From Myxococcota bacterium (GTDB lineage Bacteria > Myxococcota > B64-G9): a DNA stretch of 64,000 nt. The stretch lies in assembly GCA_022710975.1 (NCBI GenBank), contig JAKLGA010000009.1, forward strand, positions 117,547-181,546, given 5' to 3'. Position 1 is the first letter of the stretch. Each line of letters begins with the position of its first letter. The notes below the pieces were generated by a model that was not told where the DNA came from, did no database searches, and saw nothing but the letters and a program-made list of their open reading frames with translations. The translations under genes were made by a program, and so were the position numbers. Of this stretch, positions 1,754 through 59,508 are shown one piece after another.

Positions 1754-1881
1754 GCCCCGCACCGGCCCGGCCCGGGTCGAGCGCTCGCTCTCCGGCACCC
1801 CGGCCTGGGCGCGCTGCCCGGGGTGGCAAATCTCCGCCTGGCGGGTTAAGGTCCTGCAGGGGAGGAGAGAGGGCGCCCGAC

Positions 1882-4530
1882 ATGCTCGCTTCCAGGTTGA
1901 CGACCCTCCTGGGGATCCTCGGAGTCGCCGCGAGCCTGGGCAGCTGCGGCCCCGAGGGCCCCACCCTCCACGAGCGGCTGGGCCCGCTCCGGCCCGCGCA
2001 GCTCGACCGCCAGGGCCGGCCCATCCTGCCCATCTGGGCCACCGAGCAGGAGCGCCTGGCCGCGCTGCGCGCCGCCCCGCCGCCCGCCGATGATCTCAAG
2101 GCCGCGCCCGCCGCGGGCTACCGGGTGCCGGCGGAGTACGAGCCGACGCAGGCCGTGGTCATGACCTACACCTCCTACGACTACCTGCTGGACGAGATCG
2201 CGCCCTACGTGGCCTCGGCCGGGGCCGAGGTCTGGATGGTGGGCGGTCCGGCCAGCATGTCCGGCGTGCCAGCCGCCCAGTACCGCCGGCTCGCCTGGCC
2301 CTACGACTCGGTCTGGTCGCGGGACTACGGCCCGGTCGGCATCGACGAGGCCAGCCACACGCTCGGCATCGTGGATCCCACCTACCGCCACTACGCCAGC
2401 CGGCCGGACGACGACGACATCCCCTGCCGGGTGGCCGTGGAGGCGGGCGCCGCCTGCCACACGACCACGCTCATCCTGGACGGCGGCAACTACATGACCG
2501 ACGGCCGGGGCTCGGTCTTCCTGACCCGGCGCATCTACGACTGGAACAGCCAGCTCAGCGAGGCCCAGGTGAACCAGCTGCTGCGGGACTACCTGGGCGC
2601 CCAGAGCCTGCACGTCTTCGACTACGCCGTGGACGAGTACGGCGATCCGGCCGACGGCACCGGGCACATCGACATGTTCGCCAAGCTGCTGCCCGGTTGC
2701 GTGGTGCTGGTGGTCGACACGGACGACGCGCCCTTCGCCGCGGTGTGCGACGCCGCGGCCGCGACCTTCGCCGGCCTCGAGTGCGTGCCCGGCCAGAACT
2801 ACCAGGTCCTGCGCGTGCCGGGCTGGTACCAGTCGGACGGCTGGTGGGGGGTCTGGTACACGTACACGAACTCGCTCATCATCAACGACACCGTCCTGGT
2901 CCCGTCCTACTCGGGCGGCCAGGACGCAGCGGCTCGCGCCGTCTACCAGCAGGCCCTGCCGGGCTACACCGTCGCGCTGCTCAACACCGACGAGCCCATC
3001 CTGAGCGGCGGCTCCATCCACTGCATCACCAAGGAGATCCCGTTCATCGAGGACCTGGGCTGCGCCACGCCGGCCGACTGCGATCTGCCCCAGGTCGACC
3101 AGCACGCCTGCACGGCCGGGGTGTGCGGCATCGTCAGCTGCGACCCGGGCTACGGCGACTGCGACGGCGCGGCGGACGACGGCTGCGAGCAGGACCTGTG
3201 GCAGGTCGCCGCCTGCGGCACGAGCTGCGCCCGGCTGGTGAACTGCCCGAGCGAGCTGCAGCACGCCGCGGGCGAGGGCTGCGCGGCCGGCGCCTGCGAC
3301 TACGCCAGCTGCGACGCGGGCTACGGCGACTGCGACGGGGAGCGCGAGGACGGCTGCGAGGCGAACCTGTGGCAGCCCGGGGCCTGCGGCACGACCTGCG
3401 CCCAGCGGGTCGACTGCGCGGCCCTGGTGCAGCACGCCACCGGGCTCGCCTGCGCGGCGGGAGCCTGCGACTACGGGGCCTGCGCCGCGCTGTACGGCGA
3501 CTGCGACGGCGACCGGACCAACGGCTGCGAGCTGGATCTCCGCCTGGACGAGGCGCACTGCGGCGGCTGCCTGACGAGCTGCGCGGACGGCGAGGTGTGC
3601 GAGGGCGGCCTGTGCGAGGTCCCGGCCTGCCCCGCGGGCCTCGCGGACTGCGACGGCCAGCCGGGCGACGGCTGCGAGGTCCAGCTCGGCACCGACGCGG
3701 ACTGCGCCGGCTGCGGGGACGACTGCCGGGATCGGTTCGCCCACGCCACCGGCGCGTGCGTCCAGGGCGCCTGCGCGCTGGGCCCGTGCGCGGCCGGCTA
3801 CGGCGACTGCGACGGGAGCGCGGCGGACGGCTGCGAGAGCGAGCACGCCACGGACGAGGCCCACTGCGGCGACTGTCAGACCGCCTGCGCGGCGGGCCAG
3901 ACCTGCGAGGGCGGCCTGTGCCGCGACGAGCCCTGCCCCGCGGGTCTCGAGGACTGCGATGGCCAGCCGGGCAACGGCTGCGAGGTCCAGCTCGGCACCG
4001 ACGCGGACTGCGCCGGCTGCGGGGACGACTGCCGGGGCCTCTTTCCCCACGGGCAGGGCGCCTGCCTGGCCGGCGCCTGCGCGCTGAGCGCCTGCGAGCC
4101 GGGCTTCGCCGACTGCGACCTCGAACCGGCCTCGGGCTGCGAGCGCTCGCTCGCCGAGGCCGGCACCTGCGGGGCCTGCAACCGCGCCTGCGCCGCGGGG
4201 GAGAGCTGCGTGCGCTCGGGCGCGAGCTGGACCTGCCAGGGCGGCTGCGCCGACGGCGACGGCGACGGGTTCGCCGACCAGGCCTGCGGCGGTGCCGACT
4301 GCAACGACCTGGCGCCCGGCGTGAACCCGGACGCCGCGGAGCAGTGCAACCTGGCCGACGACGACTGCGACGGGCAGACGGACGAGGACGGGGTGTGCGA
4401 CCGCCAGCCGGACGATGCCAGCGGCTGCGGCTGCGCGGCGTCGGGCGAAGGCGGTCCGGGCGCGGAGCTCGGCCTGCTGCTGCTCGTCGGCCTGGCGGCC
4501 GTGGGCCGGCGGCGGACGGGAGAGAGCTGA
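1882..4530 (+). CDS. Lipoprotein with agmatine deiminase / Porphyromonas-type peptidyl-arginine deiminase (PAD_porph) catalytic domain, ~6 cysteine-rich repeats, C-terminal MYXO-CTERM
   Basis: ATG at 1882 with lipobox LGSCG. Family motifs WSRDYGP, GGNYMTDGRG, GHIDMF and C-terminal GGSIHCITKE (catalytic Cys). Repeated CxxGYGDCDGxxxDGCE units. C-terminus GCGCAASGEGG + hydrophobic stretch + RRR resembles the MYXO-CTERM sorting signal. Confidence 0.8.
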   Translation: MLASRLTTLLGILGVAASLGSCGPEGPTLHERLGPLRPAQLDRQGRPILPIWATEQERLAALRAAPPPADDLKAAPAAGYRVPAEYEPTQAVVMTYTSYDYLLDEIAPYVASAGAEVWMVGGPASMSGVPAAQYRRLAWPYDSVWSRDYGPVGIDEASHTLGIVDPTYRHYASRPDDDDIPCRVAVEAGAACHTTTLILDGGNYMTDGRGSVFLTRRIYDWNSQLSEAQVNQLLRDYLGAQSLHVFDYAVDEYGDPADGTGHIDMFAKLLPGCVVLVVDTDDAPFAAVCDAAAATFAGLECVPGQNYQVLRVPGWYQSDGWWGVWYTYTNSLIINDTVLVPSYSGGQDAAARAVYQQALPGYTVALLNTDEPILSGGSIHCITKEIPFIEDLGCATPADCDLPQVDQHACTAGVCGIVSCDPGYGDCDGAADDGCEQDLWQVAACGTSCARLVNCPSELQHAAGEGCAAGACDYASCDAGYGDCDGEREDGCEANLWQPGACGTTCAQRVDCAALVQHATGLACAAGACDYGACAALYGDCDGDRTNGCELDLRLDEAHCGGCLTSCADGEVCEGGLCEVPACPAGLADCDGQPGDGCEVQLGTDADCAGCGDDCRDRFAHATGACVQGACALGPCAAGYGDCDGSAADGCESEHATDEAHCGDCQTACAAGQTCEGGLCRDEPCPAGLEDCDGQPGNGCEVQLGTDADCAGCGDDCRGLFPHGQGACLAGACALSACEPGFADCDLEPASGCERSLAEAGTCGACNRACAAGESCVRSGASWTCQGGCADGDGDGFADQACGGADCNDLAPGVNPDAAEQCNLADDDCDGQTDEDGVCDRQPDDASGCGCAASGEGGPGAELGLLLLVGLAAVGRRRTGES

Positions 4531-18942: not shown

Positions 18943-19503
18943 ATGCCCGAGGACGCTCGAGGGTTGCGCGTGTGGCTGTGGGCACCGCTCACCGGGCTCG
19001 TCACCGCGGGGCTGGCCCTGGCCCTTCTGCTCGCCTGGCCCCCGTCGCAGCCGGACGATCCGGCCGGGCGCATGCCGGACTTCCTGGCGCAAGACGGCGG
19101 GACCCAGCCGCCCCCGGTCGCGGTCCACTGCCTGCGCCCGGGTGGACCCGGGCCCCTGCCGCAGGCGGATGGCACCTGCCGGGTGGGAGACCTGCTCTCG
19201 ATCAAGGCGGCCACGAGGCGGGGCGAGCACTACCTGTCCGCGGCCTCCCTGGGGCCCGACGGCGCCGTGCGCTGGTACTTCCCCTCCGCCGGGGTGGCTA
19301 GCCTGGTGGTCGGTCCGGGCGGGCTGGCCAGCCGGGGCGCCCTCGTGGGCTCTGACCACCCGGCGGGTCGCCACGCGCTGTTCGTCCTGCTGAGCGCTGC
19401 CCCGCTGGCGGAGGCCGAGGCGCGCCTGGCACTCGAGCAGGTGCGCGCCGGGTGGCAGCCTGGGCCGCGGGTGCTGGAGGCCGAGTTCGAGGTCCTGCGG
19501 TGA
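18943..19503 (+). CDS. Hypothetical membrane-anchored protein
   Basis: RBS GGAGAGGAGG before ATG. N-terminal TM helix. Sits immediately upstream of the kinase gene. Confidence 0.45.
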   Translation: MPEDARGLRVWLWAPLTGLVTAGLALALLLAWPPSQPDDPAGRMPDFLAQDGGTQPPPVAVHCLRPGGPGPLPQADGTCRVGDLLSIKAATRRGEHYLSAASLGPDGAVRWYFPSAGVASLVVGPGGLASRGALVGSDHPAGRHALFVLLSAAPLAEAEARLALEQVRAGWQPGPRVLEAEFEVLR

Positions 19504-38097: not shown

Positions 38098-39462
38098 TCA
38101 GCGGCCCTCCAGGCCGTGCTTCTTCAGCAGATCCTTGAGGTGGTGCCGATCGAGCCGGGCCTCGCGGGCGGCGGCCGACAGGTTGCCGCGGTGGCGGGCC
38201 AGGAGATCGAGCAGGTAGGCGCGCTCGAAGGCGTCCACCACCCGCCCCTTGGCGTCCTTGAAGGCGGCGCCCCCCTGGCGGGCCGTGCCCTCCCCGATGG
38301 CGCGCTCGAGCTCGGCCACGAAGGCGCGCGGCTCGAACGGGCGGCCGCTGGCGGCGCCGAGCAGCGCCGCCGCGCGATCGACCGCGTTGCGCAGCTCACG
38401 GATGTTCCCCGGCCAGGGGTAGGCCTGCAGCGCGGTCAGCGCCCCGGCCGGCAGCGCCTCGGCCCGCCAGCCCTCGCGCTCGCCAGCCGCCCGGACCAGG
38501 AAGTGCGCCAGGAGCTGGGGCAGATCCTCGCTCCGCTCGCGCAGCGGGGGCAGGCGCAGGGACACCACCGCCAGGCGGTAGAACAGGTCCTCACGGAAGC
38601 GCCCCTCGGCCACCTCGCGGCGCAGCTCGCGGTGGGTGGCCGCGATCAGCCGGACGTCCACCTCCACGGGGCGATCCGCGCCAACCGGCCGGATCTGCTT
38701 GCGCTCCAGCGCCCGCAGCAGCTTGGGCTGCAGCTCGGCCGCGAGCTCACCGACCTCGTCGAGCAGCAGGGTGCCGCCGCGGGCCTGCTCGAAGCAGCCC
38801 GCCCGGTCGGCCTGGGCGCCGGTGAAGGCCCCCTTGCGGTGGCCGAACAGCTCGCTCTCTGCGAGATCGCGGGGGATGGCGGTGCAGTCCAACACCACGA
38901 AGGGGGCGTCCCGGCGGGGGCTGGCCCGGTGGATGGCCTCGGCCAGCGCCTCCTTGCCGGTGCCCGTCTCGCCCTCCAGCAGCACGGTGACCTCGCTGCC
39001 GGCCACCTCCGCGGCGGTGGCGAAGATCTCGCGCATGCGGCGGCTCTGCCCGAGCACCCCGTGGAAGCTGGACGCCTCGAGGGGCGCCGGGCGCAGCCCG
39101 CGCTCCTCCGGCACGATCTTGAGCGCGGTCTGCCCGAGCCGCACCAGCGCGCCCGGGGCCAGCACCAGCTCCCGCACCCTCGAGCCCTCGTAGAAGGTGC
39201 CGTTGGTGCTGCCCGGGTCCTGGAGCCACACCCCTCCGGGCGCCAGCTTGGCCAGCAGGTGGCGACGGGAGACCGTCCCGTCGACCAGCACCAGCTCGCA
39301 GGCGGGATCGGTGCCGATCTGGATGGGCTCGGGCCCCACGGCGCAGGCCCGGCCCGCGTCCGGTCCCTCGACCACCAGCAGGCGCAGCGCGCCCAGGTCG
39401 CGGCGCACGTCCTCGCTCGGCCCGGCTAGCAGGCTGGTGGTCCTGGAGTCGTCCTGGCTCAT
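38098..39462 (-). CDS. Sigma-54-dependent transcriptional activator with N-terminal FHA domain (FHA-AAA+-HTH)
   Basis: FHA (GTDPACELVLVDGTVSRRHL...STNGTF), Walker A GETGTGKE, GAFTGA sigma-54 contact motif, R-finger region, C-terminal Fis-type HTH. Confidence 0.85.
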   Translation of the reverse strand: MSQDDSRTTSLLAGPSEDVRRDLGALRLLVVEGPDAGRACAVGPEPIQIGTDPACELVLVDGTVSRRHLLAKLAPGGVWLQDPGSTNGTFYEGSRVRELVLAPGALVRLGQTALKIVPEERGLRPAPLEASSFHGVLGQSRRMREIFATAAEVAGSEVTVLLEGETGTGKEALAEAIHRASPRRDAPFVVLDCTAIPRDLAESELFGHRKGAFTGAQADRAGCFEQARGGTLLLDEVGELAAELQPKLLRALERKQIRPVGADRPVEVDVRLIAATHRELRREVAEGRFREDLFYRLAVVSLRLPPLRERSEDLPQLLAHFLVRAAGEREGWRAEALPAGALTALQAYPWPGNIRELRNAVDRAAALLGAASGRPFEPRAFVAELERAIGEGTARQGGAAFKDAKGRVVDAFERAYLLDLLARHRGNLSAAAREARLDRHHLKDLLKKHGLEGR

Positions 39463-47655: not shown

Positions 47656-47889
47656 TCAGAGACGGCTCTCGTCGCAGATGTTCTGGTCGAAGCGGTAGCG
47701 GCAGGTGGTGAAGCCGAACAGGTGGTAGAGCGGGGACCAGCCCGCGGCGGCGGTCGCCAGCGGCCACAGCGCCAGGAGCCCCCACCAGGTCGACAGGGCG
47801 AAGCCGACCACCGCCAGGCTCAGGCCCAGCAGCAGGCGGAAGATGCGGTCCCACAGGGCGATGTTCGGTTCGGGTCGTGTCCAGCGCAT
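47656..47889 (-). CDS. DUF2892 (YgaP-like) small membrane protein
   Basis: Two TM helices. Conserved W...GxxxxCPxY-like C-terminal pattern (GFTTCRYRFDQNICDESRL). Confidence 0.5.
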   Translation of the reverse strand: MRWTRPEPNIALWDRIFRLLLGLSLAVVGFALSTWWGLLALWPLATAAAGWSPLYHLFGFTTCRYRFDQNICDESRL

Positions 47890-48690: not shown

Positions 48691-48755
48691 GTGGCACCTC
48701 CTTGTCCGGCCCCGTATCTTGGGAGATCCGCGGGCCGGATGCAAGCGGACCGCGG

Positions 48756-48808
48756 CCGGGGCGTTGGCAGACCCGCCGTGTGTGAATCTCTCAGGGCAGC
48801 CTTCGAGG
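48756..48808. repeat. Intergenic repeat family A, copy 1 (CCGGGGCGTTGGCAG..CGTGTGTGAATCTCTCAGGGCAGCCTTCGAGG)
   Basis: About 50-nt element. Copies at 54500..54553 (about 85% identical) and 58017..58059 (5' two-thirds conserved). Confidence 0.6.
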
Positions 48809-48855
48809 AGTCCTGCCTCCAACTAGACACCGGCCACTCGCAACCAGCCACTGGC

Positions 48856-48938
48856 TTCTCGCCACCTCCTTCCTTTCCTTCACCCCGGGGAGGTACAATC
48901 GCGCAAGGCCTGACCCGGCACGCTCAGGAGGGATTCCG
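48856..48938 (+). promoter_or_regulatory. Conserved leader with candidate -10 TACAAT (48894..48899) 40 nt before ATG; duplicated at 52851..52933
   Basis: About 80 nt nearly identical between the two paralog leaders, including CACCTCCTTCYTTTCCTTC, GGAGGTACAATCGCG and RBS AGGAGGGA. Confidence 0.3.
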
Positions 48939-51707
48939 ATGGGGATCATGCGGTTCGCAACCCGCCTCCGCCCGATCTGCGCGATCCTCGGCCTGGCCCT
49001 GTGCCTGGGGGCCCTCCTCGCCTGCCCGGGTTGCGTCGACTACCAGGGGAACGTCCCCTGCGAGTCCGACTCCGACTGCGGCAGGGCGCAGGCCTGCGAC
49101 CTGACCCAGGGAATCTGCCGTCCCATGTCCTGCGTCCTGGCCTGCCAGGGCCGCGAGTGCGGGCCCGACGGCTGCGGCGGGACATGCGGCGCCTGCGCCG
49201 CGGGGGAGACCTGCAGCCAGGGCGGACAGTGCCTCGGCGCATGCTCGCCAGACTGCTCGGCCCGCGAGTGCGGGCCCGACGGCTGTGGCGGGAGCTGCGG
49301 CGCCTGCCCGGTGGGAGAAGTTTGCACCCCTGAGGGTATGTGCGGCGGCGACTACCCCTGCTGCGGAACCCGGGAGTGCGGGCCGGATCCGTGCATGGGT
49401 GTGTCGTGCGGCGCCTGCCTGCCGGGCGAGACATGCACCCCTGGGGGCATGTGCGAGGGCGACTACCCCTGCTGCGGGATCCGCGAGTGCGGGCCCGATC
49501 CGTGCGCGGGCGCCCCCTGCGGCACCTGCGGGATGGACGAGTGGTGCGACACGAGCGGCCAGTGCCAGGGCGTCTGCACCCCCGACTGCACCGGGAAGAG
49601 CTGTGGGGACGACGGCTGCGGCGGGAGCTGCGGCACGTGTGCGTACGATGAATGGTGCAGTGCGGCAAGCCAATGCAGGGCGGCCGCCCAGGTGGGGGAG
49701 GCCTGCCCCTTCGAGAGCATCAACCCGGACGCCGGGGTGTGCGCCGAGGGCTTGACCTGCCTGGGCCTTGCGCCCGAACCCTACAGCTCTCCGTGCTCGG
49801 CCGACGAGGACTGTCTGCTGTATCTCCAGGATTTCCATAACCCGGATTGTTCTGACGGTGGATGTGGGGGTTCCTTCTGCGTCGCCGATTGCGTGGCGGA
49901 GGACTGCGACTCAGGTTTCAGCCCACAAATGGTCGGGGGTCATTGCTACTGCATCCCGGCGAACGCAGGCCCGAACGACGGCCAGGTGGGCGACGCATGC
50001 TACTTCGATCCAGTCCATACCGAGGAGGGCGCCTGCGTCCCAGGCCTCGAGTGCTTTGGCATGGGGCCGTACTGGAACGAGATGCCCTGCACGGATGACT
50101 CCGACTGCTTGGCCTTCCTCCCTGCCTCCTACAACCCAGAGTGTGTCGCTGGCAGTTGCGGCGCGTCTCTCTGCGTCGGCCCTTGTGCCGCAGACGGCTC
50201 CTGCGCCGACGGCCTACAGCCGATTGTGATGGGCAGCGAGTGCTTCTGCATTCCCAGCGACCAGATCGGCACTGGCCAGCCCGGCGACCCCTGCCCCTTC
50301 GAGCAGGTCCATGCGGACGACGGGCCGTGCGCTCCGGACCTCGTGTGCCTGGGCAATGCCCAGGGCGCTGAAGCCTGCGCGACCGTCGCAGACTGCGTGA
50401 ACTTCGGCTACGACCAGGTCTACAACCCGGAGTGCGTCCAAGGCTTCTGCGGCTTCTCCTTCTGCGCCGGCCTCTGCGTGAACGGCGGCCACTGCGACCC
50501 CGGTTTCCTGCCGATCGAATCGGAGGGCACCTGCTACTGCATCCCGGACACCTCGGAGGCCACCGGTCAGGCCGGCGATCCCTGCCCCTTCGACCAGGTC
50601 AACCCGACCGCGACCGAGTGCGCTGTCGGCCTGACCTGTCTGGGGATCCTGCCGGATCCGAGCTCGACTCCCTGTCCCGCGGGCGACGCGGACTGTCTGG
50701 CTTTCTACGCGGCCGCCTGGAACCCCGACTGCGCAGTGGGCGGCTGCGGCGTGTCCTTCTGTTCGGCAACGTGCACCAACGGCGCCTGCCCCGCGGGCTT
50801 CGGGACCTATGACATCATGGACACCTGCTACTGCATCCCCCTCCAGCAGCCGTCCCCCTCCAGAATCGCCTACGTCACCAACCGGAGCGGCCGGTACGAG
50901 ATCTGGGTGATGACCGGGGACGGCCTCGGGCAGCGGCAGCTCACCTTCAGCGCGCCCGACGAAACCCAGCGCATGGGCGCGCACTCGCCGCGCTGGTCGC
51001 CGGACGGCGCCCGGATCGCCTTCCTGTACGGCGCCGGGGACCCGACGCCGGACAGCACGCGGACCATGGTGATGAACGCCGACGGGACGGACCTGCGGGA
51101 GGTCACCCACGCGATCAGGACCTACTGGGAGCTGATTGCCTGGAGCCTGGACGGGACCGCGATCCTCCAGGAGCTCGACCTCTTCATGAACTCTCAGATC
51201 CTGGGCGTCGACCTGGCGACCGGCGCGACCCGGGTGGTCCTGGACGACACCCCGGACGGCTACCTCATCGCGGTCTCCCCGGACGTCAACCCGGTGGACG
51301 CCACGCTCGCGTACATCGCCTACAACACCGGCGGCGACTGGGGCGGCTTGCGCCTCCGCGCCATGGACGGCGGCGCCGAGACGACCCTCCTCGGCGCCGG
51401 GGTCGGGGTCGCCTCGCCGAGGTGGTCGCCGACCGGCGAGGAGATCGCGTACTCGCTCGAGGACTCCACGACAGGCAGCTTCAAGGTGATCGCCCGGGCT
51501 GGCGGGCCGCCCCGGACCATCACCTTGGACCCTCCGGTCGACACCAGGGCGGTCAGCGTGGACTGGACCGAGGACGGGTTCATCTTCAGGCGGTCCGCGG
51601 GCTCCGGCGGTGAGATCTGGGCCTGCGGGGCGGACGGCAGCGGGGCTCACGCGCTCCTCGCGGACGGCTGGAACAACCTGGAGCCGGACTGGAGGAGCGC
51701 GCCGTAG
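48939..51707 (+). CDS. Cysteine-rich repeat lipoprotein with C-terminal TolB-like (PD40/WD40-like) beta-propeller
   Basis: Lipobox LLAC. Repeated RECGPDGCGGSCGAC units. C-terminal segment with SPDG/SPRWSPDG PD40-like blades. Confidence 0.75.
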   Translation: MGIMRFATRLRPICAILGLALCLGALLACPGCVDYQGNVPCESDSDCGRAQACDLTQGICRPMSCVLACQGRECGPDGCGGTCGACAAGETCSQGGQCLGACSPDCSARECGPDGCGGSCGACPVGEVCTPEGMCGGDYPCCGTRECGPDPCMGVSCGACLPGETCTPGGMCEGDYPCCGIRECGPDPCAGAPCGTCGMDEWCDTSGQCQGVCTPDCTGKSCGDDGCGGSCGTCAYDEWCSAASQCRAAAQVGEACPFESINPDAGVCAEGLTCLGLAPEPYSSPCSADEDCLLYLQDFHNPDCSDGGCGGSFCVADCVAEDCDSGFSPQMVGGHCYCIPANAGPNDGQVGDACYFDPVHTEEGACVPGLECFGMGPYWNEMPCTDDSDCLAFLPASYNPECVAGSCGASLCVGPCAADGSCADGLQPIVMGSECFCIPSDQIGTGQPGDPCPFEQVHADDGPCAPDLVCLGNAQGAEACATVADCVNFGYDQVYNPECVQGFCGFSFCAGLCVNGGHCDPGFLPIESEGTCYCIPDTSEATGQAGDPCPFDQVNPTATECAVGLTCLGILPDPSSTPCPAGDADCLAFYAAAWNPDCAVGGCGVSFCSATCTNGACPAGFGTYDIMDTCYCIPLQQPSPSRIAYVTNRSGRYEIWVMTGDGLGQRQLTFSAPDETQRMGAHSPRWSPDGARIAFLYGAGDPTPDSTRTMVMNADGTDLREVTHAIRTYWELIAWSLDGTAILQELDLFMNSQILGVDLATGATRVVLDDTPDGYLIAVSPDVNPVDATLAYIAYNTGGDWGGLRLRAMDGGAETTLLGAGVGVASPRWSPTGEEIAYSLEDSTTGSFKVIARAGGPPRTITLDPPVDTRAVSVDWTEDGFIFRRSAGSGGEIWACGADGSGAHALLADGWNNLEPDWRSAP

Positions 51708-51794
51708 GTTCGCCGGGCCCCCCGGGGCCGTAGGTGCCAGCCGCCTGCAAGGCTGGGTGGTCCGCTGCACACGCAACCACCAGCGAGGGTCGCG

Positions 51795-52769
51795 ATGAAG
51801 GGCAAGTCGGTCGATCTGCTGATGAAGGCGAAGCGTCGGCTCGACCCGCGGGCCCACACGGCCTGGACCGAGTTCCACCCGTTCCGCTCGGCCGAGGCGC
51901 GCGCGGAGTACTTCGCCTCTCTCGAGCCGCGCGAGCGGCGCTGGCCGATCCCCTCGGAGGACCGCGTCGTCGAGACCTCGTGGGCGCGGACCTTCGTCCG
52001 CGTGGGCGGATTGGCCGGCGGGCCGCCGCTGGTGCTGATGCACGGCGCGGCCACCAACTCCCTGAGCTGGGAGTGCAACATCCAGGGGCTGTCGGAGCGT
52101 CATCGCACCTACGCGATCGACAACCCCTACGACGTCGGCCGCAGCGTCTACGCGCGCGACGCGAGCAGCGTCGACGACTACGTGGCCTGGCTGGACGAGA
52201 CGCTCTCCGCGCTCGGGCTCGCGGGCGGGATCGATCTGGTCGGCATGTCCTACGGCGCGTGGCTGACCGCGAAGTACACGCTCGCCCACCCCGAGCGCGT
52301 CGCCCGCGCGGTGTTGCTGGTCCCGGCCCTGACGGTGCAGAACGTGCGCTTCGTCTGGGTGGTGCGCTGCCTGTTGTCGATGCTCGATCGGAGGCTCTCG
52401 CAGAACTTCGCGCGCTGGACGCTCCGCGACGCCTACGAGCAGGGCCCGCGCTCCAGGCAGCTCGTCGAGGAGATCGCCGACGACGGCCTCGCCCTGTCGA
52501 AGAAGTGCATCTCCCGGCACGTGGTGCTCCCCACCAGGCTCGAGGACGCCGAGTGGCGGCGCCTCACCACCCCGATGCTGGTGCTCGTGGGCGAGCACGA
52601 GAAGCACTACCACCCGGCGAAGGCGGTCGCCCACCTCGCGCGCGTGGCGCCCCGGGTCAAGGTGGAGGTCATCGCCGGCGCCGGGCACGATCTCGCGGCG
52701 GTCTTCCCCGAGCTGGTGAACCGGAAGGTGCTCGCCTTCCTCGAGGAGGGGCGGGCCGATTCGCGGTAG
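51795..52769 (+). CDS. Alpha/beta-fold hydrolase
   Basis: HGAATN oxyanion region, nucleophile elbow GMSYG, C-terminal GAGHDL (His). Confidence 0.8.
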   Translation: MKGKSVDLLMKAKRRLDPRAHTAWTEFHPFRSAEARAEYFASLEPRERRWPIPSEDRVVETSWARTFVRVGGLAGGPPLVLMHGAATNSLSWECNIQGLSERHRTYAIDNPYDVGRSVYARDASSVDDYVAWLDETLSALGLAGGIDLVGMSYGAWLTAKYTLAHPERVARAVLLVPALTVQNVRFVWVVRCLLSMLDRRLSQNFARWTLRDAYEQGPRSRQLVEEIADDGLALSKKCISRHVVLPTRLEDAEWRRLTTPMLVLVGEHEKHYHPAKAVAHLARVAPRVKVEVIAGAGHDLAAVFPELVNRKVLAFLEEGRADSR

Positions 52770-52850
52770 GGGCCACCAGACACTCGCGACTCGTCACCCC
52801 CTTCGGGGGCTGCTCCGCTTCGCTCGAGGACTCGCTCGCTCCGCGGCTCG

Positions 52851-52933
52851 CCACCCGCCACCTCCTTCTTTCCTTCCTCCCGTGGAGGTACAATCGCGGA
52901 AGGCCTGGCCCGGCGCTCTCAGGAGGGACTCCG
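52851..52933 (+). promoter_or_regulatory. Duplicate of conserved leader; candidate -10 TACAAT at 52889..52894
   Basis: Same motif order and same 40-nt spacing to the ATG as at 48856..48938. Confidence 0.3.
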
Positions 52934-54487
52934 ATGGGGATCACGCGGTTCGCAACCCGCTCTCGTCCGGTCCGCGCGACCCTCGGACTGGCCCTGTGCC
53001 TGGGGGCCGTCCTCGCCTGCCCGGGCTGCGTCGACTACCAGGGGACCGTCCCCTGCGAGTCCGACTCCGACTGCGGCAGGGCGCAGGTCTGCGACCTGAC
53101 CCAGGGGATCTGCCGTCCCATGTCCTGCATCCAGGCCTGCCAGGACCGCGAGTGCGGGCCCGACGGCTGCGGCGGGAGCTGCGGCGCCTGCGCCGCGGGG
53201 GAGACCTGCAGCCAGGGCGGACAGTGCCTCGGCGCATGCTCGCCCGACTGCTCGGCCCGCGAGTGCGGGCCCGACGGCTGCGGCGGGAGCTGCGGCACCT
53301 GCCCGGCAGGAGAAGCTTGCACCCCTGTGGGCGTGTGCGGCGGCGACTACCCCTGCTGCGAAACCCGGGAGTGCGGGCCGGATCCGTGCATGGGTGTGTC
53401 GTGCGGCGCCTGCCTGCCGGGCGAGACATGCACCCCAGCGGGCATGTGCGAGGGCGAAGCCCCCTGCTGCGGAAACCGGGAGTGCGGGCCGGATCCGTGC
53501 GCGGGTGTTTCGTGCGGTGAATGCATGGCGGGCATGCCATGCACCCCATCTGGCATTTGCATGGGCGATGCCCCCTGCTGCGAAAACCGGGAGTGCGGGC
53601 CGGATCCGTGCCTGGGACTGTCCTGCGGCACCTGCGGGATGGACGAGTGGTGCGACGCGAACGGCCGGTGCCAGGGCGTCTGCACCCCCGACTGCACCGG
53701 CCGCCAGTGCGGGGACGACGGCTGCGGCGGGAGCTGCGGCACCTGCGCGTACGATGAATGGTGCAACGACCTCGGCATCTGCGTCTGGGAATGCCAGCCC
53801 GACTGCACCGGCAAGGAGTGCGGGCCCGACGGCTGCGGCGGGAGCTGCGGCACCTGCGCCCCGATGCAGGTGTGCGACGCGACCGCCCGGTGCGTGCTCC
53901 CGGGCAACCAGCAGGCCGGCGAGCCCTGCGACTTCGACACGGTGAACGTGGGCGCCGGGGAGTGCATGACCGGCCTGGTCTGCCTGGGTGTCCTTCCGGA
54001 CCCCACCATAGGGGCCTGCACCACCGACGGCGACTGCGTCAGTTTCCTGGACCCCCTCTGGAACCCGGACTGCGTGGGCGGCTACTGCGGCGCCTCCTTC
54101 TGCTCGCCGGAGTGCGAGAACGGCGCCTGCGACCCTGGCTTCCAGCCGCAGTACATCAGCGGCCTGTGCATGTGCATCCCTTACTGGCAGGACCCTGACC
54201 CGGGCCTGCCCGGCGACCCCTGCGCGTGGGACCAGGTGAACTCCGAGGCGGGCAACTGCGAGGCCAGCCTGCTCTGCCTGGGTATCCCCCCGGACCCGCT
54301 CGAGACGCCCTGTCCCGCGGGGGACGGGGACTGTCTGGCTTTCTACGCGGCCGCCTGGAACCCCGACTGCGTGGACGGCGGCTGCGGCGTGTCCTTCTGC
54401 TCGGAATCGTGCACCAACGGCGGCTGCATTACTGGCTTCGAGCCGATCGACATTTCGGGCGACTGCTACTGCGTCCCCCTCCCGTAG
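52934..54487 (+). CDS. Cysteine-rich repeat lipoprotein, paralog of 48939..51707 lacking the beta-propeller
   Basis: First ~720 nt >95% identical to paralog 1. One extra Cys-repeat unit. RBS AGGAGGG. Confidence 0.75.
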   Translation: MGITRFATRSRPVRATLGLALCLGAVLACPGCVDYQGTVPCESDSDCGRAQVCDLTQGICRPMSCIQACQDRECGPDGCGGSCGACAAGETCSQGGQCLGACSPDCSARECGPDGCGGSCGTCPAGEACTPVGVCGGDYPCCETRECGPDPCMGVSCGACLPGETCTPAGMCEGEAPCCGNRECGPDPCAGVSCGECMAGMPCTPSGICMGDAPCCENRECGPDPCLGLSCGTCGMDEWCDANGRCQGVCTPDCTGRQCGDDGCGGSCGTCAYDEWCNDLGICVWECQPDCTGKECGPDGCGGSCGTCAPMQVCDATARCVLPGNQQAGEPCDFDTVNVGAGECMTGLVCLGVLPDPTIGACTTDGDCVSFLDPLWNPDCVGGYCGASFCSPECENGACDPGFQPQYISGLCMCIPYWQDPDPGLPGDPCAWDQVNSEAGNCEASLLCLGIPPDPLETPCPAGDGDCLAFYAAAWNPDCVDGGCGVSFCSESCTNGGCITGFEPIDISGDCYCVPLP

Positions 54488-54499
54488 CCGTCCCCTGCA

Positions 54500-54553
54500 G
54501 GCAGGACGTTGGCATACCCTGCGTGTGCGAATCTCTCAGGGCAGCCTTCGAGG
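54500..54553. repeat. Intergenic repeat family A, copy 2
   Basis: CAGGACGTTGGCATACCCTGCGTGTGCGAATCTCTCAGGGCAGCCTTCGAGG. Confidence 0.6.
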
Positions 54554-54632
54554 GGTTTGCCGATACCCGACCCACGATCTATCGAGGAACCCGGCTACCC
54601 GCGGCCACCCGCGGCACTCGGGTGGCACCTGC

Positions 54633-54674
54633 GAAGGCCTCTTCTTCGCGGCGTCATGCGGAAGATCCGGTCCC
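54633..54674. repeat. Intergenic repeat family B, copy 1 (GAAGGCCTCTTCTTCGCGGCGTCATGCGGAAGATCCGGTCCC)
   Basis: 41 of 42 nt identical to 57950..57991. Confidence 0.7.
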
Positions 54675-54779
54675 ACGAGAGGTACCGGCTGCCTGAAGAT
54701 GTGCAGATTGCGCTGCGGGTCTGAACGCGCGAAAATTGTCCAGGGGAGAGCATCGTCCCTGTGAGAATGGAGGTTACCC

Positions 54780-55517
54780 ATGCCAGCGATCCGTGGGGCC
54801 TTGGCGATGGGGCTCGCCCTCTCTTTGCTCTCATTCTCCGGCTGCGGTTAGGGTGCTTCCCTCTCGGAGATTCGCATCGAGCTCCAGGACCACGGCAGCG
54901 CCTCCTGCCTGGGCGCGGCCCACCTGATGATCCGCGCCCAGAACTCCCACGACACCCTGGAGCAACACGAGTACGGCAAGTTCTTCCAGACGAACCCCCT
55001 GGCCTGCGCGGGCGGCACGATCCTGGTCTCGGGCCTCGAACCAGACCACGAGTTCCGGGTCTCGGTCAGCCTGTGGGACTCGACCACCGACATGGATGGC
55101 CTGCTGGCCGAGGGCTCGACCTCCGCCTTCGAGCTCGAGCCGGGCGCCTCCCTACCCATCGCGGTAGACCTGTCGCGCACCGACGCTCGTCCGGGCACGA
55201 TCAGCTTCGCGTCCCCGCCGGCCGACTGGTCCCAGGCCGCCGCGGCAGAGGCGTTTCGCTTCACCATCACCGCGGACGGGGAGACCGTGCCGCAGCGCTC
55301 TGGCCACCTCGACGTCCAGCCCGAGCGCCTCACGGATCCGTTCCCGCTGATCATCTCCGACCTGCCCTTGACAGCCGAGCTTACCGAGTACCACGTGGTG
55401 GTGGAGGCACTGGGCAGGAGCACGCAGGGTCTCGACCCGCCCGTGCTCCACTCCTGGACCGCCACCGCTTTCCTGGGCGGCCCGGCGGTCAACCCTGGAG
55501 ATTCGATCCTCAAGTAG
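54780..55517 (+). pseudogene. Lipoprotein gene interrupted by an in-frame TAG immediately after the lipobox (signal peptide 54780..54851; body 54852..55517)
   Basis: RBS GGAGG 6 nt before ATG 54780 encodes MPAIRGALAMGLALSLLSFSGCG, then TAG at 54849..54851. The same frame continues open for 222 codons to 55517. Confidence 0.45.
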
Positions 55518-55657
55518 GAGAGGGCCCAGCCCGCGAGTGCCAGCCGCCTGCTATCGCCGCGCTACCATCCGAAGTACAATGAGGGAGCCAGACGGCAGGC
55601 GAACGAGAGGGCGTGCGTGGAGGTCGGGATCCTGGAGATGCGGAGGAGGCGAATTTG

Positions 55658-56323
55658 GTGAGGGCTACAGTCTTGGCTCTTGTGATTCTTCTGGCCACGG
55701 GCTGTGCCGAGCAGGTTGCGGGCGTCGATGGTGGCACAAATGGAAACGGCTACTGTTCTTATCGGCTTGCCATCGATGAACTGCTACTATTTTCGGACTA
55801 TGTAGCTCTTGGCAGACCGGTAGAAGCAAGGAAAGTGCTTTTCGAGGCGTTAGCTACTGCAGTTATCCCGCCTGAGGACTTCTTTTTTTGCACTATCTTC
55901 AGTGTGGCAACCATTGACACGCTCAACGTGGCTGTAAGACAAGACGACAATGAAGAGGCAACACCGCCTTGGGGCGATGAATTGGCGACCTACCATGATG
56001 AATGCATGCGAATTGCAGAATTTGAAAGAGGAACACAAAATCTACTTGCATATCCGACCGCACTCTTTTTTGCGCAGAACAACATATACCTGAATCGGCC
56101 ATATCTTATTGAGATGCTGGAGGTCGTGGACTCGAAGGTAAAAGTTGGACCCTCGAATACCAGATGCGGTGTAGCGCTGGAAATCGAGGTGACTGAGCTG
56201 TTCGATGCCGTTGCGGTGGGCGACTTTTCTGCGCTGTTGGAGGCCGATACGTATCCTTGTCGGCAGAATGATGGTGCGGCCATTGATGACCCTGACGGCT
56301 CCGATGGATCCGAAGGGAAGTAG
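55658..56323 (+). CDS. Lipoprotein, hypothetical (low-GC island gene)
   Basis: RBS GGAGGAGG then TTG 55655/GTG 55658. Signal + lipobox LATGC. About 47% GC. Confidence 0.55.
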   Translation: MRATVLALVILLATGCAEQVAGVDGGTNGNGYCSYRLAIDELLLFSDYVALGRPVEARKVLFEALATAVIPPEDFFFCTIFSVATIDTLNVAVRQDDNEEATPPWGDELATYHDECMRIAEFERGTQNLLAYPTALFFAQNNIYLNRPYLIEMLEVVDSKVKVGPSNTRCGVALEIEVTELFDAVAVGDFSALLEADTYPCRQNDGAAIDDPDGSDGSEGK

Positions 56324-56424
56324 AGAGACATCCCCCGCCGAAAGGACCCCCGCAGGCAGGTGCCAGCCACACTAGATGGGCATCCGGGAATCGGGGCTGA
56401 ATGACGAGATTGGAGTTCGAGGTC

Positions 56425-57339
56425 ATGAAATCGATCATCCATGCTGGGTGGTATGCGGCGCTTGCGATACCCTTGCTGATGGTTGGCGCAGAATCCTGTA
56501 CTGGAGGAGCAGGTCAAGGGCGCTACTCTGGCGGCATGGGAGGGGCGAAGATCGTGGGGAGAGGATTGGAGTTCGATTGCCCTGAGTATCAATATGGCGA
56601 CTGGGAGAACCCCCAGAAATTCTATCTATTTCCGAGAATCATAAAGAGTGGCGAGAGAGTAAAAATCTATCTGGCAGTGGAAGATGATGTGTTGATTAGA
56701 GAAAAGAATGCGAATGGAGAAGCAGAATTTTCTGTAGAAGTACTGCATGAGAAGGCATCACTCACCAGGGTGGGCTTTGCTGATGACCTGGGCAGCTTGG
56801 CGGGAACCATGTATTGGGCCCCGGTATTTCTGGGAACGGTTGATGTGGAGACCGATGTGCAGGGGTGGGTGGATGTGAACTATTTCAATGGGAAACAGGT
56901 GATAGGTACCAGGAGCATTCTGGTGACAGATGGCACCAAGGAGGAGTCTTCCTGGACATCAAAGGTGGTCTGTCGACTCGATTGTGGAAAATCTGTGCAG
57001 TTGGACCACGTCCTTGTCTACGTCGACCGCACCCCTGTCGAGTATTTCACCAAGATCGTGGCAGCCACGGGTGGCACCCTCGGCAGGATAGTATCTGTTG
57101 GATTCGGACAAGAGCCGTATGGGAATTGCTATCCTAGTTGCTATTTTCCATACCAGGGCGTTGCGTTGGACATCATTTTGCCTGAAGCGGGATTTCACAC
57201 CGCCTGTGGAGCGCTAGATTCAGTGGAGAAGTTGGGAATTCCTGGAGTGAAGGTCGCAATGCCTACTAAAGAATTCGGCACTGTCGATTTGAACCCGCAA
57301 TGCAGAACGATGGAGTTTCCCGTTGGCGACTGCCACTAG
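56425..57339 (+). CDS. Secreted/lipoprotein-like hypothetical protein (low-GC island gene)
   Basis: ATG 56425 preceded by GGAG. Signal peptide ending VGAESC. No known motifs. Confidence 0.55.
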   Translation: MKSIIHAGWYAALAIPLLMVGAESCTGGAGQGRYSGGMGGAKIVGRGLEFDCPEYQYGDWENPQKFYLFPRIIKSGERVKIYLAVEDDVLIREKNANGEAEFSVEVLHEKASLTRVGFADDLGSLAGTMYWAPVFLGTVDVETDVQGWVDVNYFNGKQVIGTRSILVTDGTKEESSWTSKVVCRLDCGKSVQLDHVLVYVDRTPVEYFTKIVAATGGTLGRIVSVGFGQEPYGNCYPSCYFPYQGVALDIILPEAGFHTACGALDSVEKLGIPGVKVAMPTKEFGTVDLNPQCRTMEFPVGDCH

Positions 57340-57384
57340 TGGGCTGAGGAGAGAGGGCTGGCGCGGGGCGGCGGAGCAGGCAGC

Positions 57385-57729
57385 TCAGTGCAGGCGCGCG
57401 GGTGGCTCCTCCGCCTTGACCGCGTTCAGGTCCGCCTTGAGCTCGGAGATGTCGGCCTTGACGATGACCATGTCCGCCTTGAGGCCCGCCACGTCGGTCT
57501 TCAGCACGGACACGTCGGTCTTCAGCACGGACACGTCCTGCTTGAGGACCCGCACGTCGCCTGCCAGGTCGAGCACCGCGACCTCGAGCCGATCGAAGCG
57601 CGCGTCCTGCTGGTCGAAGCGCCTGTCGTGCCGGGCGAGGTGCTCGCCGTTCATCTGCACGCCTTCGGCCACGGCCTGGATGGAGGACTGGATGTTCTCC
57701 AGGAGAATGGCGACCTGATCCTGTTCCAT
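57385..57729 (-). CDS. Small coiled-coil protein with heptad tandem repeats (DVSVLKT x2, then variants)
   Basis: ATG 57729. RFDQQDARFDRLE followed by DVRVLKQ/DVSVLKT/DVSVLKT/DVAGLKA/DMVIVKA/DISELKA/DLNAVKA. Perfect 21-nt DNA duplication. Confidence 0.55.
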   Translation of the reverse strand: MEQDQVAILLENIQSSIQAVAEGVQMNGEHLARHDRRFDQQDARFDRLEVAVLDLAGDVRVLKQDVSVLKTDVSVLKTDVAGLKADMVIVKADISELKADLNAVKAEEPPARLH

Positions 57730-57917
57730 GGCGCCTCCAGGGTAGCGGGCCTCGCGGGTGGAATCAACCCTCGCGTGCCCTCCCACGGACGGCGTTCCCG
57801 AGCAAGAACAATGCTACGATGCTGGATCCACGAATCCGGGGGGTTACGTTGCCAGGCGGCCCTCGGCGCTGCGCGGGTGACCGGATTTCCCGGACACCGT
57901 GACCGGAAATCGGACAC

Positions 57918-57945
57918 ACGCGCCAGGTGCCAGCCACCCGGAGCC
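57918..57945. repeat. Intergenic repeat family C (ACGCGCCAGGTGCCAGCCACCCGGAGCC), copy 1
   Basis: 28 of 28 nt identical to 58831..58858. Core GTGCCAGCC also at 51733, 55537 and 56360. Confidence 0.7.
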
Positions 57946-57949
57946 CGGC

Positions 57950-57991
57950 GAAGGCCTCTTCTTCCCGGCGTCATGCGGAAGATCCGGTCCC
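57950..57991. repeat. Intergenic repeat family B, copy 2
   Basis: GAAGGCCTCTTCTTCCCGGCGTCATGCGGAAGATCCGGTCCC. Confidence 0.7.
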
Positions 57992-58016
57992 TTCCTGAGG
58001 TGCCACCCACCTGCAG

Positions 58017-58059
58017 CCGGGGCGTTGGCAGGCCGTCCGTGCGTGGATCGCCCAGGGCA
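58017..58059. repeat. Intergenic repeat family A, copy 3 (partial)
   Basis: CCGGGGCGTTGGCAGGCCGTCCGTGCGTGGATCGCCCAGGGCA. Confidence 0.5.
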
Positions 58060-58202
58060 TTTCATGGAGGCGAAGGACAGGCGGGAAGGGCAGGGGGCGA
58101 GGTGCCAGGCAGGTTCCAGCCCCCCTCCGGCCGGAACTTCAGGCCTCCGTGGTCCCGTCGCGCCACGCGCCGTCTCGTTTCATGGCGGATAACAATCACG
58201 AG

Positions 58203-58817
58203 CTAGTCAATGAAAAAGCACATTCTGCGCCCTCCCTGGACTGGGATGCAGGGAAGGCCGTAGGTCGCGTTTCCTGGATACTTGCAATCATCGCAGTCTG
58301 ATTGGTCTTCGCAAAGGTGCGAACAGAATGCTTGTGGGTTTTGTGGGTCACCATCGCAAAAAAGACCTTCTCCACAGGCTGACTGCTGTTGGTCAGTACA
58401 GGGTGTGCCACAGGTGCCTTCTCGTGAACCACATTCTGCCCCGAGAGCTATCTTCTCGCAGAACGACGGTTCACCAAGTTGGCTGACGCAGCACATAGGA
58501 CTTCCGTCATCTAGTATGTCCAAGCAGTCAGAATCGGCATCACATGGAATGGTACAAAGACCCATGGAGGGCCCAAAGAGGCCATACTTGCAGAATTGTG
58601 ATTCACAGTCTTCGTTTTTGGCGCATAAGTCGCCAATACCCGCAGCGTTTCCATCGTTGCCGTCTTGACCATCCATCCCAGAATCAGGAGGCGATTCCAG
58701 ATCGCTGCATCCAAGGAACAGCCATTGAATGGCAACTATTGAGACAAGCAGAGAGACTCTTCGAACTACAATATAGGGTTCGAGGAAGGTCGATCTGCTG
58801 AGACTCTTGAACCCCAT
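58203..58817 (-). CDS. Cysteine-rich lipoprotein, hypothetical (low-GC island gene)
   Basis: ATG 58817. Signal + lipobox FLGC. 24 Cys in the mature part. Confidence 0.55.
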   Translation of the reverse strand: MGFKSLSRSTFLEPYIVVRRVSLLVSIVAIQWLFLGCSDLESPPDSGMDGQDGNDGNAAGIGDLCAKNEDCESQFCKYGLFGPSMGLCTIPCDADSDCLDILDDGSPMCCVSQLGEPSFCEKIALGAECGSREGTCGTPCTDQQQSACGEGLFCDGDPQNPQAFCSHLCEDQSDCDDCKYPGNATYGLPCIPVQGGRRMCFFID

Positions 58818-58830
58818 GGCTACCTCGCCC

Positions 58831-58858
58831 ACGCGCCAGGTGCCAGCCACCCGGAGCC
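58831..58858. repeat. Intergenic repeat family C, copy 2
   Basis: Identical 28-mer, 20 nt upstream (gene sense: inverted) of ATG 58817. Confidence 0.7.
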
Positions 58859-58878
58859 GGGCTCCTCGAGGCTCGCGC

Positions 58879-59508
58879 CTAGCGCGGCTTCCGGCGCAGC
58901 AGCCCCAGCCCGATCACCAGCCCCAGCACCAGCCCGCCGCCCTGGCCCGCGGTGGAGTCGGAGCAGTCCTCCGTGTCGTCGCAGGTGTGCCAGTAGCCCG
59001 CCTCGATGGTGTGAAAATGGCAGGACTGGTCGAGCGCCTGCGCGAGGACGAACTCCACCGGGGCGGAGTAGAGGTCGCAATCCACCTCCGTCCCGTCCAC
59101 CCTGAAGCTCGCCAGGAGGCAACCGTCACTCTTGCTGATCACGAAGACCCCGCGCTCGCCCACGGCCAGGGGAGTGCAGCGGTTGCACCCGGATTCGCAC
59201 GGCGTCCCTGCACCCCAGGAGAACTCCACCGGGAAGTCCACGGCCGGGCACTCGAGCCCGCCATCGCAGTAGATCGGCGTCTGGAGGAGGCTGATGCTCA
59301 GCCCGTCCGTCTGGACCGCCGTCACCTCGGCCTGGGCCACCATGGAATTCTCCTGCCATTCGAAGCAGCAGGGCGCGCCGGGGCACATCGCGGCCGCGCT
59401 GGAGGGAAGGACGACCAGCAGCAGCGCGGACAGGAGCCCGGCCAGCGCGACACCCTCGGCCGCGCGCGCCGCGCGGCAGACCCCTCGAGGAAATCCCTTC
59501 TCCCGCAT
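58879..59508 (-). CDS. Secreted cysteine-containing protein with C-terminal hydrophobic + RRKPR anchor-like tail
   Basis: RBS GGAGGT 7 nt before ATG 59508. Signal peptide. C-terminus CSDSTAGQGGGLVLGLVIGLGLLRRKPR. Confidence 0.5.
   Translation of the reverse strand: MREKGFPRGVCRAARAAEGVALAGLLSALLLVVLPSSAAAMCPGAPCCFEWQENSMVAQAEVTAVQTDGLSISLLQTPIYCDGGLECPAVDFPVEFSWGAGTPCESGCNRCTPLAVGERGVFVISKSDGCLLASFRVDGTEVDCDLYSAPVEFVLAQALDQSCHFHTIEAGYWHTCDDTEDCSDSTAGQGGGLVLGLVIGLGLLRRKPR

Follow-up and report, generated by a model that had tools for sequence, protein, structure and literature searches.

This study concerns a short repeated motif, GTGCCAGCCRC, in the DNA of a member of the Myxococcota. The stretch analysed, hereafter the window, is 64,000 nucleotides (nt) long (positions 117,547 to 181,546 of contig JAKLGA010000009.1) and has a G+C content of 72%. 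Gene content fits Myxococcota; there are Ser/Thr kinases, an FHA-type sigma-54 activator, Cys-rich lipoproteins, and a weak MYXO-CTERM match. The repeat-bearing segment, at ~48.7-59.7 kb, is referred to as the island. Here, an alpha/beta hydrolase gene sits between two paralogous genes for Cys-rich lipoproteins (48939-51707 and 52934-54487). Beyond these are an interrupted lipoprotein-like gene, the genes LP5 (55658-56323, + strand), LP6 (56425-57339, + strand), and LP8 (58203-58817, - strand), a coiled-coil gene, and a gene encoding 209 amino acids (aa). LP5 is ~50% G+C and has a secreted or lipoprotein-like product. LP6 is also of low G+C, as is LP8, which encodes a disulfide-rich lipoprotein. 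These three genes, of 204-304 codons and not all co-oriented, are 42-59% G+C, compared with ~72% for the genome. Note that independent assemblies of several anaerobic-digester metagenomes yielded contigs of 215-319 kb that are identical to the window. Hence, the repeats are not an assembly artefact.

Exact matches to GTGCCAGCCRC occur six times in the window, only on the + strand, at positions 2266, 51734, 55537, 56360, 57927, and 58840. In dinucleotide-preserving shuffles (n = 100) the mean was 0.45 and the maximum 2. Five of the six matches are clustered within 7 kb (51.7-58.9 kb), all in spacers. Recurrence of the motif, proposed in an earlier note on this DNA, is thus real. The note listed the five island copies and missed the match at 2266; of its coordinates, 51733 was off by 1, while 57924 and 58837 were off by 3, these being starts of CAGGTGCC... 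rather than of the motif. The sixth match (2266-2276, + strand) is inside a PAD_porph (peptidyl-arginine deiminase-type) gene, at 1540-4530, well away from the island. Probably, it arose by chance and does not belong to the repeat family.

Individual copies are embedded in different surroundings. Copy c1 (GTAGGTGCCAGCCGCCTGCAAG, 51730-51751, + strand) lies 26 nt past the stop codon for the 922-aa Cys-rich lipoprotein, and 61 nt ahead of the hydrolase ATG. Copy c2 (GCGAGTGCCAGCCGCCTGC, 55533-55551, + strand) follows the interrupted lipoprotein gene, 19 nt from its stop, and precedes the LP5 GTG by 121 nt, so that LP5 is located between c2 and c3 (GCAGGTGCCAGCCACACTAGATGG..., 56356-56404, + strand). 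As noted previously, the matches at 51734 and 55537 share the 15-mer GTGCCAGCCGCCTGC. Copies c4 (57917-57949, + strand) and c5 (58830-58862, + strand) are the left and right members of a direct repeat (CACGCGCCAGGTGCCAGCCACCCGGAGCC). The identical 28-mer already reported here (ACGCGCCAGGTGCCAGCCACCCGGAGCC) is exact at 57918-57945 and 58831-58858, and is part of something longer. The full repeat is 33 nt, with 29 identical positions, one mismatch, and then GGC. Copies were also said to be always next to gene starts. This fits c1, c2, and c3, which are 61, 121, and 65 nt upstream of + strand starts, though the same copies are 19-36 nt downstream of preceding stops. It does not fit the copy at 57927, within a 470-nt spacer and ~190 nt from the nearest start. 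Nor is the last copy inverted, as had been claimed; the match at 58840 is on the + strand, and it is the neighbouring gene that is on the - strand.

A weight matrix identified four further degenerate copies in island spacers. These include an inverted copy at 54615-54632 (GCAGGTGCCACCCGAGTG on the - strand), copy M' at 57996-58015 (TGAGGTGCCACCCACCTGCA, + strand), and a copy at 58098-58126 (CGAGGTGCCAGGCAGGTTCCAGCCCCCCT, + strand). All but one of the nine spacer copies are on the + strand. Spacers make up ~17% of the island, by our count from coordinates, and hold all island matches of at least 14 bits, bar a weak one of 14.0 bits (50144, - strand) inside the gene at 48939-51707. With the same matrix, the motif was absent from ~50 other spacers of the window and from a 6-kb extension past its right end. 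We also observed a near-perfect match outside the island at 19164-19179 (- strand; GCAGGTGCCATCCGCC, 17.6 bits), where DNA appears coding on either strand. This is probably a chance match.

Alignment of all copies (n = 12) shows that only a core of 12-16 nt is common, with tails forming subfamilies. Conservation drops sharply outside the core, rather than being graded along an element. Across the family the core consensus is CAGGTGCCAGCC, followed by R-M-C. By our reading, the repeat is non-coding, having stops in most frames and no pattern of synonymous substitution. Note that GTGCCAGCCGCC (51734-51745 and 55537-55548) is the same as the opening 12 bases of 515F, the universal 16S primer (GTGCCAGCMGCCGCGGTAA, with M = C). 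We regard this as a coincidence. One consequence is that searches with a short core also match rRNA genes of some taxa.

The repeat is not confined to this organism. A single homologue of LP6 was found among 5.8 billion proteins (P0122, 58% aa identity). Contigs L130-L133 encode it, and there is no overlap between their samples and those holding the window's organism; we label the source of these contigs organism B. Here, there is overlap between the LP6 homologue and the end of a gene for a 968-aa S8 subtilase. The two are ~46% G+C, and are followed by DNA of 66-75% G+C. This high-G+C tail contains 2-4 copies of CCAGGTGCCAGCCGAC within ~1.2 kb, and three of the four contigs also have an inverted copy of the motif ahead of the subtilase gene. 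A weight matrix built from window copies alone produced 2-4 matches in the ~1.2-kb tail of each contig. For comparison, the same matrix matched 6 times in 212 kb of metagenome loci that are high in G+C but unrelated, and 0-1 times in a pair of 20-kb loci from relatives, used as controls. The motif is downstream of the LP6-type gene in organism B and upstream in the window. Its recurrence beside an LP6 homologue, at non-homologous positions, independently confirms the motif as a biological entity tied to this kind of gene. The earlier description of the motif as specific to this locus stands within 64 kb, though a second organism has the family too. Taken together, the repeat family is real, spacer-restricted, strand-biased, and common to two organisms, beside a homologous cassette gene.

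Relationships between copies extend, in part, beyond the core. The 28-mer tail ACCCGGAGCCGGGCTCC aligns to ACCTGGAGCCGGGGCTCC of the L130 copy B_a, and 6 of 2000 shuffles equalled the score. From the sequences, the window 28-mer looks like B_a minus 17 internal bases. Similarity between the c3 tail and the long copies of organism B is weak (p ~0.05); against B_b it was marginal, being equalled in 111 of 2000 shuffles. DNA homology between LP6 and L130 covers 56396-57333, and starts just 3' of c3.

Two arrangements are suggestive of rearrangement at the repeats. First, L130 differs from L131 and L132 by ~770 nt, which carry an Rhs/YD-shell core fragment and a gene for a 100-aa membrane protein. 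Consecutive repeat copies enclose this segment in L130, whereas the same two copies are directly adjacent in L131 and L132. The L130 junction has an 11-nt tandem duplication (TCGTCCAGGTG). Hence, in organism B, the repeat flanks a presence/absence polymorphism of a cassette. Second, in the window, the 29-nt exact direct repeat of c4 and c5 brackets 880 nt holding LP8. DNA of LP8 is 89% identical to contig L134 over 58121-58827, and this homology block is bounded on the left by the degenerate copy at 58098-58126 and on the right by c5 (from 58830). In addition, c5 supplies the left arm of an imperfect palindrome of 53 nt (58833-58885), with bulges, and this palindrome overlaps the 209-aa gene (- strand) at its stop codon. 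The direct repeat ends exactly at the palindrome tip, GGAGCC-G-GGCTCC. Loss of the insert, and of one repeat, would leave the 209-aa gene, the palindrome, and the coiled-coil gene as same-strand neighbours of native G+C.

As our preferred explanation, we propose that junction repeats, of which the motif is the core, act as recombination sites in an array of cassettes. We hold this tentatively, as plausible rather than probable. The repeats would be the core of a divergent family, occupying spacers of a lineage-specific island at ~48.7-59.7 kb, and the stretch bearing them would be an array of gene cassettes, several of them foreign (50% versus 72% G+C). The repeats might then serve as recombination sites, or as short patches of homology, for cassette insertion, deletion, inversion, and duplication. 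Their role would be analogous to that of the junction sites in integron arrays or the intergenic motifs of rAID arrays (acquired interbacterial defence, associated with a recombinase). Recombination at the repeat, and an enzyme that carries it out, are what we infer from these arrangements. The earlier note suggested either an operator or a recombinogenic repeat, and the second half of that suggestion gains support from the core in organism B, the indel, and the direct repeat of the window.

Several observations weigh against junction repeats of this kind. The two ends of the organism B indel are ~20 nt and ~85 nt from the respective cores, with no defined crossover point, and there is no copy of the motif at the right end of LP6 (57333). 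Because island spacers are only 60-100 nt, the presence of a repeat near a homology breakpoint (0-25 nt) carries little weight. Orientation is inconstant, with copies flanking the low-G+C pair inverted in L130 and direct in the window, and conservation across all copies is limited to 12-16 nt. Searches of Pfam and NCBIfam with open reading frames of the window, and of 6 kb past its right end, detected no integrase, transposase, or other recombinase, and PADLOC found no recombinase among the island genes. Finally, 11 contigs covering the window locus are all collinear, and at least 99.9% identical, with no structural variant.

A further low-G+C module, on contig L135 of organism B, bears on possible mechanisms. 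This module, of 2.9 kb, is flanked by 135-nt direct repeats (79-214 and 3404-3536; 87.5% identical) in which a host gene has its 3' end (LFPSDY, then stop) and which also hold a G+C-rich hairpin. This is the arrangement expected if a circle integrates by recombination through a shared segment. Another repeat, of 42 nt and exact (5-46 and 3146-3187), looks like the result of integration through a duplicated host segment. The 135-nt repeats contain only a partial motif (GGTGCCAGG) and so were not counted as copies. Flanking duplications thus differ in length, being 33 nt in the window and at least 135 nt in L135. Given this variability, and the lack of a recombinase, we lean toward homology-based or trans-acting mechanisms.

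It is instructive to compare the island with known systems. Integrons, and clusters of attC sites without an integrase (CALIN), have attC sites with R'' (RYYYAAC) and R' (GTTRRRY) boxes 40-140 nt apart. Like these, the island has short genes of deviant composition, and a site that mostly follows gene 3' ends and mostly has one direction. A cassette is present or absent between consecutive sites, and c5 forms an imperfect palindrome with bulges. Conversely, the island lacks attC boxes, no IntI was found within 70 kb, gene orientation is mixed, and most copies are not palindromic, the conserved part being an asymmetric core of 12-16 nt. Integron attC sites were rejected on the basis of the R''/R' pattern, sought as a regular expression, which had no match in 48.5-60 kb on either strand (whole window, 2).

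In Bacteroidales, rAID arrays have a tyrosine recombinase, orphan immunity genes that are short, low in G+C, and co-oriented, and intergenic motifs that are conserved (PMC12247911). The island likewise has short genes (~200-300 codons) with G+C below that of the genome, and a conserved spacer motif. Furthermore, homologues of two of its genes are directly behind a large secreted enzyme gene, and those in the window are orphans. Differences are that no recombinase was seen in the window or its 6-kb right extension, that the phylum is another, and that one gene is inverted. In addition, the partners are an S8 subtilase and an HExxH protein, not known effectors of type VI secretion systems (T6SSs), and an immunity or inhibitor function is putative. 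The island thus belongs neither to integron or CALIN arrays nor to rAID arrays. Repetitive extragenic palindromic (REP) sequences, and bacterial interspersed mosaic elements (BIMEs), resemble the repeats in being short, in spacers, and at gene 3' ends, in forming direct, tandem, and inverted pairs, and as possible hot spots for rearrangement. They differ since the core here is not a palindrome, copies are confined to one island within the 64 kb, instead of being scattered among many spacers, and no REP-associated tyrosine transposase (RAYT) was found. Unlike miniature inverted-repeat transposable elements (MITEs), the 12-copy alignment has no terminal inverted repeats, target-site duplication, or defined unit length. 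Arrays of orphan toxin-immunity genes, downstream of rhs and cdi genes, have a parallel in the variable cassette of organism B, with its Rhs/YD-shell core fragment and small membrane protein. In those arrays, however, the repeated segment is a conserved coding piece; here it is non-coding.

In one alternative, which we consider unlikely, the motif would act in cis-regulation, as an operator, upstream activator site, or 3'-end element, through which one regulator controls the secreted-protein genes of the island. Such a site would travel with, or be recruited beside, those genes. Placement of c1-c3, 61-121 nt upstream of + strand starts, is in keeping with this, and c2 ends just upstream of what we read as a possible -35/-10 pair (TACAAT, 55575-55580). 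Some copies have a partial dyad, GGTG-N5-CACC, and the conserved intergenic motifs of rAID arrays are likewise of unsettled role (PMC12247911). However, the dyad is not conserved in organism B (GGTG...CGAC). About half of the copies, among them c4, M', 58098-58126, c5, and the L130 copies B_a, B_b, and B_d, have no downstream gene on their own strand. Distances to gene starts are not fixed, no common -10 element follows the motif, and the island has no gene for a transcription factor or other regulator. The operator half of the earlier suggestion gained no positive evidence. Regulation would also leave the 29-nt perfect direct repeat, and the indel between copies, unexplained.

A second alternative, to which we also assign a low probability, is that copies are relics of a small non-autonomous mobile or REP-like element, inserted repeatedly in a tolerant, fast-evolving region, with no role in moving genes. 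Tail subfamilies, truncated and internally deleted copies, and location at gene 3' ends are all as expected for a decayed element. So are tandem and inverted pairs (B_a-B_b; 54615 on the - strand with 54681 on the + strand; and the c5 palindrome). Given such truncated, tandem, and inverted copies, we take a decayed element of REP or MITE type seriously as a rival. Nonetheless, as described above, neither terminal inverted repeats nor target-site duplications nor ends can be defined from the 12 aligned copies, the core is not palindromic, and conservation is confined to it. Absence of the motif from ~50 other window spacers and the 6-kb extension, and of any detected RAYT or transposase gene, further argues against such an element.

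Promoters dependent on sigma-54 are a far less probable explanation. The reverse complement of the motif, GGCTGGCAC, would be their -24 element, serving the nearby FHA-type activator (gene at 38098-39462), and TGGCAC is indeed on the - strand of every copy. The earlier note doubted this interpretation, and rightly so. By inspection, GG-to-GC spacing is 8-9 or 12 nt, on either strand, instead of 10, and there is no conserved -12 TTGC. The pattern TGGCAC-N5-TTGCW was found 21 times, against 23.9 expected, and never at a copy of the motif. Furthermore, promoters at c1-c3 would fire antisense, into the preceding gene. We therefore reject sigma-54 promoters, as consensus matches are at chance level and the spacing is wrong. 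Least credible of all is that recurrence reflects chance or the composition of a G+C-rich genome: while the 17-mer CCAGGTGCCAGCCACCC matched more than 117 unrelated metagenome contigs, by chance and mostly in coding contexts, and the copy at 2266 is of this kind, a chance origin of the clustered copies is refuted by shuffles (0 of 100 reached 6 matches), the exact 28-mer repeat, clustering in spacers, and recurrence beside the LP6 homologue in organism B.

Other identities were also considered. A scan for sigma-70 promoters and intrinsic terminators found nothing at the motif. A known RNA was rejected, with no Rfam match at E values up to 1 (51-60 kb), as was a tRNA or tmRNA remnant, with no ARAGORN gene in the window. 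The c5 palindrome has a single-strand fold with z = -3.3 (- strand). Other copies, and the long copies of L130, fold no better than shuffles, and no RNA fold is common to them.

Returning to junction repeats, homologues of the cassette genes suggest what might be carried. For LP8, related proteins are P0123, P0124, and P0125 (80%, 41%, and 43% identity, respectively). Genes of the LP8 type are 8-16 nt downstream of a gene for a 642-aa secreted HEYTH (HExxH) protein, or for its C-terminal part, and this order was seen in three contexts (L134, L135-L138, and L146). Both two-gene modules, HExxH with LP8-type and S8 subtilase with LP6-type, are low-G+C inserts in high-G+C hosts. In the window, LP6 and LP8 stand alone, with no protease gene. 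The contrast between protease-linked homologues and stand-alone window genes resembles that between cognate and orphan partner genes. Hence, judging by gene order among homologues, LP6 and LP8 may be orphan partners, as inhibitors or immunity proteins, of secreted proteases. Periplasmic inhibitors encoded beside secreted proteases are a possible precedent, as are orphan immunity genes. We also note that coverage of L134 (4.76, sample ERZ795055) is similar to that of window contigs in the same sample (4.65-4.98). The complete protease and LP8-type module may therefore be a second locus of the same genome, with the window LP8 an intragenomic copy.

A bolder proposal, which we think doubtful, is that some Myxococcota have a previously undescribed gene-capture system. 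Here, arrays of foreign secreted-protein genes would be built at the CAGGTGCCAGCC site by a recombinase encoded elsewhere, as an analogue of integrons and rAID with an unrelated site. The cassettes would then possibly be orphan inhibitors or immunity proteins, directed against proteases of competing or predatory neighbours. If the repeats are true recombination sites, Myxococcota would have a platform for cassette acquisition with a site unrelated to attC, and CAGGTGCCAGCC, in spacers by genes of deviant G+C, would be a handle for finding arrays, and the recombinase, in metagenomes. Bacteria living densely in digesters may collect stand-alone partners of secreted proteases belonging to others, much as Bacteroidales of the gut do with orphan T6SS immunity genes. 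Interest would be limited if the repeats are just local regulatory sites, or junk.

Short repeats that are confined to the island form a mosaic in its spacers, comprising the motif, repeats X and Z, and a duplicated promoter region of the paralogues. Repeat Z, of 47 nt, has two copies that are 96% identical (54628-54674 and 57945-57991, both + strand), each flanked by copies of the motif. The inverted copy at 54615-54632 is directly 5' of the first, and the second is between c4 and M'. Repeat Z has 19 nt in common with the N-terminal coding region of a YgaP-like gene (47836-47854), and may be a gene fragment. It also contains GGAAGATCCGGTCCC, related to two tandem 21-nt units (GTGACCGGATTTCCCGGACACC and GTGACCGGAAATCGGACACAC) at 57878-57919, directly 5' of c4. 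These units could be a protein-binding array. Repeat X has three non-coding copies (48755-48811, 54500-54556, and 58016-58065), the last following M'. In L130, the stretch from the LP6 homologue to the first repeat copy contains tandem repeats of a 44-nt unit (GCGAGGCGCAAGGGGGACGTACCTGCAGTATTAACATTAAGCAA), at ~3950-4040.

For the low-G+C genes, Pfam, NCBIfam, and PADLOC provided no family match. LP5 has no homologue among 5.8 billion proteins. LP8, which is not on record as a called gene, gave a structure model (mean pLDDT, a per-residue confidence score, 77.6) with no significant match in PDB. Neither viral contigs nor plasmids matched the long repeat, LP8, or 57880-58130. For the hydrolase, a scan of genome collections found only a 43% relative in Aminicenantes. 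Two relatives with an adjacent pair of a DUF5674 gene and a 120-aa gene share only that two-gene module with the window; no homologue of an island gene, and no motif, is within 10 kb on either side of their DUF5674 pairs.

The interrupted lipoprotein-like gene (54780-55517) has an in-frame TAG (54849-54851) directly after the lipobox cysteine (MPAIRGALAMGLALSLLSFSGCG, then the stop). The frame runs on for 221 codons past the TAG, at native G+C, and public gene calls begin at 54927. It is probably a recent pseudogene. At the start of LP5, 55650-55669, including the GTG, is a 20-nt exact match to L134 36-55 (E = 4e-4). In L134 these bases are in the 3' part of a protease-like gene, upstream of the LP8 homologue, and the reading frame differs from that of LP5. 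This match may be due to chance, or be left over from a rearrangement junction. Finally, the two Cys-rich paralogues, which have CGPDGCGGSCG repeats, are 93% identical across 48860-49510 and 52856-53505, that is, over their first 570 nt and 78 nt upstream, TACAAT box included. Two short contigs, L003 and L004, join parts of one paralogue to parts of the other; these joins could be assembly artefacts or real recombination.

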